Shown piece by piece: positions 12,657-57,186 of a stretch of DNA of 64,000 nucleotides. This DNA is from Eledone cirrhosa (lineage: Eukaryota). Every line of letters begins with the position of its first letter. Positions within the stretch are counted from its first letter, which is position 1. The stretch covers positions 11,656,001 through 11,720,000 of the forward strand of contig OZ024755.1 of NCBI GenBank assembly GCA_964016885.1, written 5' to 3'. Under the pieces are notes generated by a model. That model did no database searches. It was not told the DNA's origin and was given only the letters and a program-made list of their open reading frames with translations. The position numbers and the translations under genes are program-made.

Positions 12657-12910
12657 CAAAAGGGATATTCAATTTGTTGGTAATTCAACAAATATAAATG
12701 TTTATAACTGATTCAGAGCACTCGACAAGTTTTATTCAATGATATTAAATAAACTATATGTATGAAATCATATTTATTCTAGTATATATATTTCAAGGGT
12801 ACCAAAACTTTGGTATGCTTTCATCAGATGAAATACGAAGTGTGTTTTATAAATTTTGACATGACCAAGAAAAATAACTTAACGGTTCAAGTTTTCCTTG
12901 GATAGCGAAT
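12654..12910 (-). mobile_element. Penelope-like pLTR (family B), diverged, with hammerhead core
   Basis: Minus strand CTGATGA-aagc-atacca..tggtac-cctt-GAAA-tatata-TA at about 12775-12835; homologous to 50348-50660 and 53192-53356; 3' end in (TA)n; stem I is degenerate. Confidence 0.65.
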
Positions 12911-19576: not shown

Positions 19577-19712
19577 CGATCCTTTTGCGTGCTATTGATT
19601 TGTATGAATTAAAATCTTTATATATGAATATGTTATTATCTGTAAGTGTATATTATCTTAAATAGTTGTACACGAGTTGTCAACAATTTTTGCATTATTA
19701 AACTATTACACA

Positions 19713-20052
19713 TTTGGTTATCTGGATGCATGTACAGAATTCGTAAGTATTCCTTAACTATTAGTTAAAGAGACTTTATAAAGCATGATGGAGTGTTTCT
19801 ACAAAAGACCAATGAGTCCTCTTTATTACATTCTAGAAAACATTATTTGTACACCTGCCCTAGAAATTCATTAATATATTTCGCTATATATTAATAAATT
19901 TCTAGGGCAGGTGTACAAATAATGTTTTCTAGAATGTAATAAAGATGACTCATTGGTCTTTTGTAGAAACACTCCATCATGCTTTATAAAGTCTGTTTAA
20001 CTAATAGTTAAGGAATACTTACGAATTCTGTACATGCATCCAGATAACCAAA
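19713..20052. repeat. 340-bp near-perfect palindrome (167-bp arms, 6-nt loop TTCGCT)
   Basis: Arms 19713-19879 and 19886-20052 are reverse complements with about 3 mismatches. Confidence 0.92.
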
Positions 20053-21509
20053 CGTAAAAAACGAACACGTCGATTTGATTGTGAATATGTTTGACAATGT
20101 TTCCCAACAAGTTAATAAAGGTAGAATACATATCAAAGGTAAATTTAGGAATGCAACATGTTCTGGATATGCACTACTCTAAACGTAAATGGTATAACTG
20201 AAGTCGTGGGAGGAATGTTACCATTAAGCCATCATTAATCTTGCTTTATTGTAAACATTTACCACTTCAATACATTTGTACAATTGCTTTGAATTGTAAC
20301 GTCGTCAATGTTTGATACTACAAGAAATATATATTTTTGTAAATAAGACAATAGAACCGTGTGGAAATGGAAGCATCAATTGAAACATAAGTTTTAAATC
20401 TCTGAAGCCGTTTATGAAAGTATTGAAGAAGACAAGAAAACACACGTCGATCTTCCGACGTGGAAGAGGCTCCTATCAGAAGAAACCGTCACCGAATCAT
20501 CATTTTTCTTACCTGTTGTACAAACCTGGCTGGACACAGAACACTGCACAAACATTCTAATAGTTCTATAGAGTTATGAAATAATACATATGAATAAGCC
20601 ATAGATGACGAACATCATTAGGTAATGTCAGTTTCATGAGGAGATAAAACGCCTCCATCCTTTTGAAGGAAAAAAAAAATGAGTATAGAACCTGGAAAAC
20701 TGTAAGTCGGGTATTGAAAAAAAAAAAAAAATTACAAGGGATTGACACTCCAAATTCACTATTCTCCTTTTACTTTGCTCCACTTTTCAAATTAAATCAG
20801 CCACGTTTAGAAATATACATCCGAATTCAGCAATTTGCATGTTGATTTCACGAGCAGGTTGTTCAAACAACTGGAACATTCGTCGCCTGAGCCGACGTTT
20901 GTCTAACGTACAGAGGAAGCTTTCCTTACGATATAACATCGTTCTATACAGGATGGTATTCATCTCACCTCTGCTGGATGTTACGGCAGCCAGGAATATG
21001 CAGTGATTGTATGGATCATTGTGATTCGTAAAAAAAAATATTATTAAATAATAATAAGATTAGTATGATATTACGCAGTGAATGTAATACATTGCCTCTC
21101 CAGTTGCTTGGCAAATAACTTATCTACCGCGACGGTTCTTTTTATTTTCCTCTTTGGAGATGTGTAGCAAAACGAAACACAAGATGGCGTAACATTTTGG
21201 TTTTTCATCGTTTTTGCGATATCGCTTTATTTTATTACGATTCCTCATTTTAGCTGCCATTCAATATGCCCCTCATGTTTTTCTTTCTTTCATCATTTAA
21301 AAAAATATATTTAATATCAGTTTTCCTTTTTATATCTGGATTTAACTCTTTTGATTCTTGTTGATTTAAAATAATATTTACTTAATTATTTTGTTGTTGT
21401 TTTTAAAATAACATTTCTTTCAAGAGTTTTCAATCAATATCTGTTATATTTCTTTATCTATTTGTGTTGCGCTTTAAAGATATTTGATTATATTTTAACG
21501 CACACACAA

Positions 21510-23737
<2,228 letters not shown>

Positions 23738-23931
23738 TTTTTATTTTATAGAAGGAGCTTCTACAGGACTAGTACTGTTTCATTCAGATGAATGTGCTTC
23801 CTGAAGATTTCATCTGAATGAAACAGTACTAGTCCTGTAGAAGCTCCTTCTATAAAATAAAAAGAATTTACTCTGCCATGTATTGAGTACCTTACTTACT
23901 GTGGTTATCCCCGACTCAACCCGGGACCTAC
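23738..23931 (+). mobile_element. Penelope-like fold-back pLTR element (family A): 55-bp inverted arms plus unpaired tail, embedded in (TA)n
   Basis: Arms 23738-23792 / 23809-23863 are perfect; tail 'gtattgagtaccttacttactgtggtta..tcaacccgg' is shared with 51091-51161. Confidence 0.8.
23796..23844 (+). ncRNA. Type I hammerhead ribozyme (predicted)
   Basis: gcttc CTGAAGA t-ttc-atct-gaa-t GAAA cag-tactagtc-ctg TA gaagc: stem I gcttc/gaagc, cleavage triplet GUA, palindromic ACTAGT in loop III. Confidence 0.8.
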
Positions 23932-29371: not shown

Positions 29372-29383
29372 GATGTGTGAGCT

Positions 29384-29425
<42 letters not shown>

Positions 29426-29480
29426 AGCTCACATATCCCACCATAGACACCACAAACATACACCACTCACACCCCTACAC

Positions 29481-29542
<62 letters not shown>

Positions 29543-29589
29543 GTGTAGGGGTGTGAGTGGTGTATGTTTGTGGTGTCTATGGTGGGATA
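29372..29589. repeat. Two abutting palindromes, each centred on a (TA)n tract
   Basis: 29372-29437: gatgtgtgagcttg(ta)ncaagctcacatatc. 29434-29589: about 53-bp perfect arms tatcccaccatag..acatgatg / catcatgt..ctatggtgggata around (TA)n. Confidence 0.9.
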
Positions 29590-29605
29590 CGTGGGGGAAA
29601 ATTAT

Positions 29606-29664
<59 letters not shown>

Positions 29665-32922: not shown

Positions 32923-33101
32923 TAATAGGAAAATGTATGACCCTGACGGCAGAGCTCAAGCCGTTTCGACGGCTATTTCTGGACGGCTCGAGTTCTGCCG
33001 TCGGGGTCATACATTTTCCTATTACCCACTCTACTACCCTAAATATTGAGTAATCTGGTGCGTTATGGTCCATCTGGTTCCTTACCACAACTCCTTCGTT
33101 A
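32923..33101 (+). mobile_element. Penelope-like fold-back pLTR element (family C) between (TA)n tracts
   Basis: Arms taataggaaaatgtatgacc..gacggcaga / tctgccgtc..ggtcatacattttcctatta (to 33024), then an unpaired tail homologous to the reverse complement of 52998-53070. Confidence 0.7.
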
Positions 33102-48972: not shown

Positions 48973-49015
<43 letters not shown>

Positions 49016-49116
49016 GGGGGTGTATTTATATATGTATATATGTATGTATACATTTATATATATATATATATCTATATCTATGGGCTGTATTTATATATGT
49101 ATATATGTATGTATAC

Positions 49117-49152
<36 letters not shown>

Positions 49153-49307
49153 ATATATATAGGCTGTATTTATATATGTATATATGTATGTATACATTTA
49201 TATATATATATATAGGCTATATTTATATATGTATATATGTATGTATACATTTATATATATATATATATATATAGGCTATATTTATATATGTATATATGTA
49301 TGTATAC

Positions 49308-49348
<41 letters not shown>

Positions 49349-49433
49349 CTGTATTTATATATGTATATATGTATGTATACATTTATATATATATATATAG
49401 GCTGTATTTATATATGTATATATGTATGTATAC

Positions 49434-49490
<57 letters not shown>

Positions 49491-49522
49491 CTGTATTTAT
49501 ATATGTATATATGTATGTATAC

Positions 49523-49553
<31 letters not shown>

Positions 49554-49667
49554 GGCTGTATTTATATATGTATATATGTATGTATACATTTATATATATA
49601 TATATATATATATATAATAATGAAATGACAGGAGGCTGGATTTGTGTAAATCCTTGAAAGGTTTATT

Positions 49668-49725
49668 ATACTATGATCATTTCAATGACCGGGTTCCGTA
49701 TGAATCCGGTGATATCATCAGGTAT
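49668..49725 (-). ncRNA. Type I hammerhead ribozyme (predicted), mirror copy
   Basis: Exact reverse complement of 49887-49944. Confidence 0.7.
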
Positions 49726-49886
49726 TCGAAATATAATACGTGAATGTAATAGGTAAAATCCATGGGGCTGAAAATCGAGACCCAGCGCGACCGGCTGAGG
49801 TTGAAGGAACAGAATAGCGGTCGCCCTCGGGTCTCGATTTTCAGCCCCATGGATTTTACCTATTACATTCACGTATTATATTTCGA

Positions 49887-49944
49887 ATACCTGATGATAT
49901 CACCGGATTCATACGGAACCCGGTCATTGAAATGATCATAGTAT
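49887..49944 (+). ncRNA. Type I hammerhead ribozyme (predicted)
   Basis: atac CTGATGA tatc-accgg-attcatacggaac-ccggt-catt GAAA tgatca TA gtat: stem I atac/gtat, palindromic minimal stem III (TGATCA), cleavage triplet AUA. Confidence 0.7.
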
Positions 49945-50237
49945 AATAAACCTTTCAAGGATTTACACAAATCCAGCCTCCTGTCATTTCATTATAATAT
50001 TTAACTCCGTAATAGCACCACCAACTACAAAAACAAAGACGGTTGAACTGCTTTACGTTGAGTACTCTCTATATTATTGCATTACGATTGACCATACGGA
50101 ATAGACCAGCTCTATACAGTGGTGAACCTCAAACCTGAATATATATATATATGGGCTGTATTTATATATGTATATATGTATGTATACATATATATATTTA
50201 TATATGTATGTATACATATATATATATATATATTTAC

Positions 50238-50725
<488 letters not shown>

Positions 50726-50793
50726 GGGGTGTATTTACATATGTATATATGTATGTATACATTTATATATATATATAGTTTTAATATAGAAGA

Positions 50794-50842
50794 GATTCTA
50801 CAGGACTAGAACTGTTTCATTCTTTAGAAATCATCAGGAATC
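50794..50842 (-). ncRNA. Type I hammerhead ribozyme (predicted)
   Basis: gattc CTGATGA t-ttc-taaa-gaa-t GAAA cag-ttctagtc-ctg TA gaatc; stem I covaries with the 23796 copy (gcttc/gaagc vs gattc/gaatc). Confidence 0.82.
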
Positions 50843-50898
50843 CCTGATGATTTCTAAAAGTCAAACAGTTCTAGTCCTGTAGAATCTCTTCTATATTA

Positions 50899-51083
50899 TC
50901 GGTGGATTGGCAGTATCGGTAGAGGGTCGGACGCCATGCTTTCCAGCATAGTTACGTCCCTTTACGATCTGAGTTCAAATCTCGCCGAGGTTGACTTTGC
51001 CTTTCATCTTTACGGGGTCGATAAAATAAAGTACCAGTAATGCACTGGGTAATTGCTGGCCTTGTGCCTAAAGTAGAAACAAT
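50899..51083 (+). mobile_element. SINE family 1, 7-bp TSD (tatatta)
   Basis: A-box TGGCAGTATCGG, B-box GAGTTCAAATCTC; TSD at 50892-50898 and 51084-51090. Confidence 0.9.
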
Positions 51084-51214
51084 TATATTAAAACTTTTAT
51101 ACTCTGCTATGTATTGAGTACCTTACTTACTGTGGTTACCTCCGATTCAACCCGGAATAACGTATATATATATATATATATATATAAGGGGTGTATTTAT
51201 ATATGTATGTATAC

Positions 51215-52997: not shown

Positions 52998-53167
52998 AAA
53001 GGAATTGTGGGAAGGAACCAGATGGACCACAACGCACCAGAGTACTCAAAACTTAGGGTAGTAGAGTGAGAAATAGGAAAAAGTAAGACCCCGACGGCAG
53101 AGATCAAGCCGTTTCGACGGCTATTTCTGGACGAGTCCAGAAATAGCCGTCGAAACGGCTTGAGCTA
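52998..53167 (-). mobile_element. Penelope-like fold-back pLTR (family C)
   Basis: Palindrome tcaagccgtttcgacggctatttctggac-ga-gtccagaaatagccgtcgaaacggcttga; tail homologous to 33025-33101; abuts (TA)n. Confidence 0.7.
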
Positions 53168-53231
53168 TATATATATATATATATATATATACGATATTAA
53201 CAAATGGAAACTATATTTATAAAACCATATT

Positions 53232-53296
53232 TATTTCATTATACATATTTCAAAGACACCAAGTTAAATTATGGTGTGCTTTCATCAGATAAAATA
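53232..53296 (-). ncRNA. Type I hammerhead ribozyme (predicted) in a family-B pLTR
   Basis: tattttat CTGATGA aagc-acacca-taatttaact-tggtgt-cttt GAAA tatgta TA atgaaata; 8-bp stem I with one G-U; same strand as the GIY-YIG fragment. Confidence 0.75.
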
Positions 53297-53702
53297 TAAT
53301 ATAGAGCAGTTTTATAAATAAATATTGTCATACCCTTAAAGAGTGCAACCATTACTGTTCGAAGCTGTGTAACCATTACTATTCGATAGTGGATTTATAA
53401 CTTTAATTATATTATTAGGTAAGTTAGTATTGGATATGTTTAATTAAGCCGTTGGGTTACGGAGAAAGAGAGAGAAAGAGCAGAACAACAGAGAGAAAAA
53501 GATAGAGAGAGAGGAGACAGAGAAAATGAGAGAGAACGAAAACTCTAAGTCATATCTTGTTGAGTTATCTTAACATTTGAGATGAAATGAATCGTTTTCG
53601 GTGCACCCGGCCGATGAACCCACTCGATATGCTAATTGGGCTACTCAGCCGTTAATATGCATAAGGTAAGTATATACGTTCAACAATCTGGCAGGAAGGT
53701 AT

Positions 53703-56927: not shown

Positions 56928-57186
56928 TAATTGTTTCTACTTTTGGCACAAGGCCAGCAATTACCCAGTGCATTACTGGTACATAACTATGCTGGAAAGC
57001 ATGGCGTCCGACCCTCTACGGAGAGGGTCGGACGCCATGCTTTCCAGCATAGTTACGTCCCTTTATGATCTGAGTTCAAATCCCGCGGAGGATGACTTTG
57101 CCTTTCATCCTTACGGGGTCGATAAAATAAAGTACCAGTAATGTACTGGATAATTGCTGGCCTTGTGCCTAAAGTAGAAACAATTA
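56928..57186. mobile_element. Head-to-head fold-back SINE family 1 dimer flanked by a 13-bp direct repeat
   Basis: Inner perfect arms 56984-57017 / 57022-57055; outer SINE tails face outward; aattattagtata at 56910-56922 and 57182-57194. Confidence 0.8.

Follow-up and report, generated by a model that had tools for sequence, protein, structure and literature searches.

A perfect palindrome with paired hammerhead-like motifs as a probable integration product of a non-coding, Penelope-like retroelement

What produces a DNA palindrome whose arms match without a mismatch and each carry the same hammerhead-like motif: a hairpin that moves as a unit in its own right, or the integration of another element? 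The palindrome in question lies in a window of 64,000 nucleotides of Eledone cirrhosa DNA, the whole stretch analysed here. Its longest exact inverted repeat pairs 49617-49783 with 49829-49995 over 167 nt with 0 mismatches and spans 379 bp, as the initial annotation had claimed, and the runner-up in the same window scan is 27 nt of (TA)n. Our analysis indicates that the palindrome probably arose when an abundant non-coding element, likely Penelope-like (PLE), inserted head-to-head, and that it represents the shortest form in which such insertions commonly occur.

Unit positions are those of the parent element described below (L031:5177-8348, used as the ruler; window position = unit + 49752), in which the GC hairpin occupies 32-75, the ribozyme motif 135-192 with its predicted cut at 188, end A 243-251 and end B 388-393. 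The A limb (49609..49783, minus strand) is a pLTR copy that starts at unit 77, where the GC hairpin has its 3′ foot, and finishes at unit 243-251 (end A); its outermost bases blend into (TA)n, leaving 49617-49783 as the exact arm. The 45-nt spacer (49784..49828, plus strand) is the family’s own GC-rich hairpin (unit 32-75) and the 5′ end of the B limb, with fold statistics giving z -3.5 for 49775-49835. It contains the limb junction, and its base 49786 is unlike that of the other 29 closest copies. The right arm (49829..49995, plus strand) is the pLTR core of the B limb and continues into a tail of ~145 nt (49996..50145, plus strand), missed by the initial annotation, which represents the stretch from end A to end B. 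End B, a fixed end of the family, lies at 50140-50145 in this copy and adjoins (TA)n. The target on the left (49014..49608) is a TA-rich minisatellite, the insertion having gone into its (TA)n run, and on the right (50146..50200) the same minisatellite unit picks up again. The window copy thus joins the two commonest stops of the family, with its A limb ending at unit 77 and its B limb at ~32-37.

Both arms carry the same motif, as had been proposed, with CTGATGA...GAAA-TGATCA-TA starting at 49891 on the plus strand and at 49721 on the minus strand. The complete minimal type I hammerhead-like motif is laid out as ATAC-CTGATGA-31 nt-GAAA-TGATCA-TA-GTAT and occupies 49887..49944 (plus strand), where the predicted cut after 49940 agrees by position with the one expected earlier; its mirror copy at 49668..49725 (minus strand) has a predicted cut 3′ of 49672 on that strand. 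These are the only two matches in the window when a 4-bp stem I and a palindromic stem III are required. The motif comprises the 4-bp stem I, CUGAUGA, a long imperfect stem II with a closing U-U pair, GAAA, and the palindromic stem III, so that the short helix I, long helix II and palindromic helix III of the PLE minimal hammerhead are all present. The G10.1-C11.1 closing pair is missing, its place being taken by U-U, or by a bulge plus A-U. In 99 of the 100 copies listed, a T both follows CTGATGA and precedes GAAA, and stem II variants among copies preserve or restore pairing. Rfam returns no hammerhead match at E<=10 on 49610-50140 and, on 44-56 kb, only miRNA models on (TA)n. The best predicted fold of the 58-nt motif is a non-hammerhead rod (-13.9 kcal/mol, z -1.3), with -3.0 kcal/mol predicted for the hammerhead-like fold and -7.2 kcal/mol for a stem III self-duplex. 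Judged by its motif, the ribozyme is plausible, and probably weak or dimer-dependent.

The initial annotation further proposed that the RNA must choose between a long rod and the self-cleaving fold, a proposal that fares poorly in folding predictions: the full-palindrome rod is placed at -325.5 kcal/mol versus -3.0 kcal/mol for the hammerhead-like fold. In the read-through transcript, the ribozyme core is predicted to pair with the 5′ arm at a probability >=0.997. An RNA switch between rod and ribozyme is therefore unlikely on these models, and read-through RNA would make a silencing rod instead. An overlay of reads carrying another organism label places 0 of the 40 variants listed (of 70) in CUGAUGA, GAAA, the cut site or stem I, and no strand-changing joints are listed in the same overlay.

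The palindrome belongs to a large family. The 54-nt arm core has 1,875 exact matches in the 3.0-Gb genome (reversed control 0), rising to 4,813 when stem II is left free (reversed control 0), and a 524-nt query returns 1,633 candidates; 33 of the 40 that were scored are full length, and they lie on many contigs. The parent unit measures 2,923 nt and carries a 249-nt pLTR at both ends, the direct pLTRs of L031 (5177-5425 and 8100-8348) being 99.6% identical over 249 nt. No ORF over 120 aa is found within L031 4470-8348, and we therefore file the family as non-autonomous. The pLTR carries a TCACT motif at unit 25-29 and, in younger copies, TATAAA at 8-13, this TATA-like box being confined to younger subfamilies. 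Of the 30 closest copies, 29 have a TA-rich run at each outer end; in L016, the left side is a second tail. The earlier description of a young, non-coding insertion of Penelope-like origin, with a minimal type I hammerhead-like motif, palindromic stem III and an inverted pLTR, is supported. For a coding neighbour family, the closest named homolog comes from Octopus vulgaris (68%). We note that at least half of the sampled family words occur in runs of five organism labels, which suggests that the family is common to related animals or samples.

Analysis of loci sampled by position reveals a rule for how the limbs end. Exact matches to the core were grouped into clusters along contig C1, starting from 100 listed places out of the 1,875, and the first 61 clusters form the sample. 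An inverted 5′-truncated copy lies beside the upstream pLTR at 44 of the 61 loci, giving 44 two-limb head-to-head arrangements; 41 of these combine one end A with one end B, and three have one odd end (223, 226, 292). Neither A+A nor B+B occurs among the 44. Were ends A and B equally likely and picked independently by the two limbs, 41 A+B loci out of 41 would have a probability of ~5e-13. The 17 one-limb loci divide into 7 with end A, 9 with end B and 1 that is cut short. Among the 30 closest copies, a set drawn by similarity, L016 is the sole B+B. Similarly, other hammerhead families in the flanks have unequal ends in 29 of 33 head-to-head pairs, with 1 equal (L121) and 3 unclear, in a count made by eye from which internal, cross-insertion and cut-off rows were dropped. 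The 29 include a coding family with a 1,238-aa ORF, in which the ends are unequal in 9/9 pairs.

The limbs also reach to different depths. In 37 clean A+B loci, the A limb extends further upstream in 23 and the B limb in 13, with 1 tie. In 18 of the 37, neither limb contains the other (the 23 A-further loci minus 5 in which the B limb spans the whole unit); the margin exceeds 11 nt at 14 of these 18 loci. No such locus could result from a single cDNA folding back or from self-priming on an antisense RNA. Junctions are spread along the entire unit, with a gap of <=20 nt in 40 of the 44 loci. Extra or unmatched bases appear at 22 of 40 junctions, partly reflecting subfamily drift relative to the ruler, and 7 of the 18 joins without extra bases have microhomology of >=3 nt, compared with 7% in simulated blunt joins (p ~2e-4).

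Limb ends concentrate at unit 24-37: in the 26 loci that closely resemble the ruler, this interval takes 14 of the 52 ends, compared with 4 for the 48 flanking positions (p ~1e-6). A further 5/52 fall at the hairpin foot (unit 76-86), and 0/52 lie within 5 nt of the ribozyme cut. The pile-up at unit 24-37 is independent of the partner end and is therefore a property of the template. With TCACT at 25-29 and the TATAAA of younger copies at 8-13, an RNA start is likely here, and unit 24-37 is thus, on these sequence motifs, the probable 5′ end of the RNA; the pile-up could also come from the hairpin instead of an RNA start.

Arms within a copy agree with one another. A C-to-T marker is present in both arms of 15/15 carriers, and within-copy arm divergence is 0.020 versus 0.035 when shuffled, with 0/5,000 shuffles as low (39 pairs, position-ordered set). 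This concordance argues that each palindrome is made from one source at insertion, or could alternatively arise from a single subfamily being active at a time. In L031, L037 and L119, no difference separates the three pLTR copies over the 213-215 nt compared, and identical pLTRs within a locus fit both a circular and a tandem template. Older copies carry separate mutations in each arm. At L037 (4230-5604), both limbs pass the same deletion joint of a tandem 467-nt unit, a retrozyme-sized derivative, and this joint is evidence of one template type common to both limbs. In L012, two right-arm changes at the centre lengthen the hairpin to a perfect match; they are also present in L101 and L107, and are either a junction effect or a subfamily allele.

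We consider it probable that the palindrome is built at insertion from two separately primed cDNAs of a non-autonomous Penelope-like retrotransposon. A borrowed RT/GIY-YIG enzyme, probably a dimer, would introduce a nick into each strand of a (TA)n target, and these nicks would prime reverse transcription of uncut element RNA from one source, one at site A, the other at site B. Both cDNAs would run back through the hammerhead, most of them halting in unit 24-37 or on reaching the hairpin foot (76-86); their free ends would be joined via short microhomology or a few added bases. For the window copy, this would mean an A cDNA that halted at the hairpin foot and a B cDNA that extended to near the 5′ end. 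Both hammerheads would be passengers, silenced by the read-through rod. This account builds on direct observations: the parent unit and its pLTR, fixed ends ~145 nt apart, the A+B pairing, variable centres, matching arms and (TA)n targets. Weighing against it are the 17 one-limb loci, the like-ended pairs of L016 and L121, the junctions with extra or unmatched bases, the local snap-back in L123 and an enzyme partner that was looked for and not found.

The initial annotation saw instead a self-propagating, non-autonomous hairpin whose RNA toggles between the rod and the self-cleaving fold, and proposed that repeated finds of an identical palindrome and spacer would support it. Such finds do occur superficially: the 33 full-length matches among the 40 scored candidates are near-identical palindromes, a few junctions recur in 2-4 copies each, and the L012 centre might derive from an earlier palindrome. 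The recurrence goes no deeper, however, because it stems from two template sites at which limb ends accumulate. Each copy has a centre of its own making, with ~23 junctions (approximate aligner calls) among the 30 closest copies, and the junctions that recur (L002/L006; L003, L007/L010, L011) are found with either allele of a subfamily marker. The centre of the window copy is unlike all 29 others, and the spacer is in the opposite, A-limb orientation in 6 of the 30, with 2 hybrids and 1 copy holding both. The query itself selected for the full-palindrome shape, whereas position-sampled loci grade in length from ~200 bp up to 5.4 kb, with limbs from ~35 nt up to more than the whole 2.9-kb unit. 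Taken with the energies of rod and hammerhead-like fold given above, these observations make a mobile hairpin unit highly improbable.

Self-priming or snap-back, in which one cDNA or antisense RNA folds at the hairpin and copies itself before an endonuclease trims one end into a one-sided tail, would explain the natural hairpin at the window copy’s junction and the agreement of arms within copies; it also suits the 13 of 37 loci in which the A limb lies wholly within a further-reaching B limb, and a short templated fold-back in L123, where a 17-nt local snap-back sits at the junction. As the sole route it is contradicted by the 18 loci with non-nested limbs. It sits poorly, too, with the A-limb spacers in 6 of the 30 closest copies and with junctions scattered over the whole unit, and the partner end lies at or near the hairpin 3′ arm in just 2 of the 11 loci with an end at unit 24-37; we regard it as unlikely. 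An inverted limb arising from DNA-level rearrangement after or apart from integration, or from a second insertion into the AT-rich end of a first copy, appears quite improbable. Elements do nest within one another’s (TA)n flanks, L128 joins two subfamilies (21/215 differences) and an older copy adjoins L115, but the limbs meet at their 5′-truncated ends across the short gaps described above, the three pLTR copies are identical in L031, L037 and L119, and separate events would not yield one A plus one B. The mismatch-free arms of the window copy might suggest a read fold-back or assembly artefact, which is almost certainly not the explanation: ends are unequal, junctions are diverse, older arms have mutated independently and full-length candidates lie on many contigs. 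In fact, end B followed by (TA)n recurs in contigs of two other sequencing runs, and raw reads from a third organism label include ~200 reads per run with loose ends at end A.

Whether PLEs in general integrate by coupled asymmetric double priming, with one dimer and one RNA, A and B on opposite strands and the cDNAs joined, is a wider question to which we lean slightly towards answering yes. If true, a single rule would account, across about nine families here, for palindromes with two ribozymes, for a tail on one side only and for the inversion of a pLTR, and coupled double priming would supplant the antisense self-priming model. According to the open text of Frangieh 2024 (PMC11167929), the Anolis carolinensis Poseidon element in vitro nicks and extends both strands at AT-rich targets, two RT start sites define the tail, the enzyme is a predicted dimer, and uncut RNA is used with the ribozyme cut dispensable. 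A strand difference in start site is absent in vitro in that text. In contrast to Poseidon as described there, A and B are paired one each here, and the inverted product is not part of that text’s analysis. The A-to-B coupling is therefore new and unproven, being unexplained by the in vitro start sites. The value of these observations is mechanistic, as the A+B pairing, the independent limb lengths and the absence of limb ends near the ribozyme cut sharply predict what the Poseidon system of PMC11167929 should show, and the end rule makes the PLE inversion mechanism directly testable.

The head-to-head architecture itself is already published. In their accessible text, Arkhipova 2013 (PMC3846280) describes head-to-head palindromes with an optional tail on one inverted pLTR and proposes antisense-RNA self-priming, and Craig 2021 (PMC8557442) reports a tail often at one end only, suggests endonuclease trimming as its origin, and names the formation of tandem and inverted PLE structures as an open question. 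Like the EN+ PLE insertions in these accounts (PMC3846280, PMC8557442), the present loci have direct pLTRs around a body, an inverted 5′-truncated head-to-head copy, a tail at one end, (TA)n targets, a junction palindrome and a TCACT initiator-like motif. Unlike those insertions, as far as the same texts describe them, this family is without an ORF and its tail is ~145 nt compared with a published 30-40 (PMC3846280, PMC8557442); contrary to the model outlined in PMC3846280, the limb lengths and ends here contradict self-priming as the only route. The strict pairing count is apparently new in the literature searched: neither such a count, nor a PLE double-priming model, nor an octopus hammerhead family was found in the open-access literature searched, on which supplements might bear.

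Cervera and De la Pena 2014 (PMC4209133), in the text available, report minimal hammerheads of Schistosoma mansoni paired on opposite strands 100-700 bp apart. The motif here shares with the metazoan PLE minimal hammerheads described there a type I topology, a 4-bp helix I, a long helix II and a palindromic helix III, and differs in lacking the G10.1-C11.1 pair, usually G-C in that account. Non-LTR retrozymes are presented in the open parts of Cervera 2020 (PMC7229834) and Li 2026 (10.64898/2026.07.22.740005) as short head-to-tail tandems with same-sense ribozymes; like them, the present family is non-coding, carries a type I hammerhead-like motif and is kin to PLE pLTRs. Unlike retrozymes as presented there, the window copy is head-to-head and its parent unit is 2.9 kb, and only L037 has a short tandem (a 467-nt deleted unit). 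Taken by itself, the palindrome is an unremarkable outcome of Penelope-like integration. The analysis also suggests that many long genomic hairpins in the host animal are retroelement by-products and not selected RNA switches.

As for the enzyme partner, a pLTR match was found beside none of the coding PLEs in the 33 loci examined. Two coding families were followed and are rejected as candidates, since they have their own, different pLTRs and ribozymes. One is a young coding PLE family with open frames of 1,238-1,257 aa and 27,860 candidates (L159 2353-6066 and L157-L161). It follows the A/B rule, and its tail of ~58 nt lies inside the ORF start, as in published PLEs. The 1,238-aa ORF has RT and GIY-YIG-like motifs and aligns to an RVT_1-positive ORF (E 1e-9); Pfam detects RVT_1 in 2 of 5 ORFs and nothing significant on the 1,238-aa ORF, and a PDB sequence search returns one chance-level match only. 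In a single case, L086 at ~4810, the 5′ end of an A limb is fused directly to a coding-family PLE ORF on the same strand, a possible template switch to the partner. L132 (64-5243) and L133 (468-5380) are 5-kb RT elements with direct repeats of 115-117 nt; no canonical hammerhead occurs in these repeats, and L132 contains a 440-nt palindrome.

The same 64 kb holds at least three further palindromes of other families. A 346-bp palindrome at 19710-20055 is 96.5% matched and outside (TA)n, and a hammerhead motif was not found in it; further short palindromes adjoining (TA)n but without a clear hammerhead core lie at 32923-33024, 53101-53166, 29374-29654 and 56978-57061. A second hammerhead family forms a palindrome with a tail at 50782-51165, split at ~50899-51086 by a dispersed repeat that we take to be SINE-like, and is also present at 23750-23930 with A and B ends. 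A third hammerhead family, with a 6-bp stem I and a palindromic stem III, occurs at 50350-50670, 53200-53350 and 12700-12900, the copy at 50350 being head-to-head with a tail of ~100 nt.
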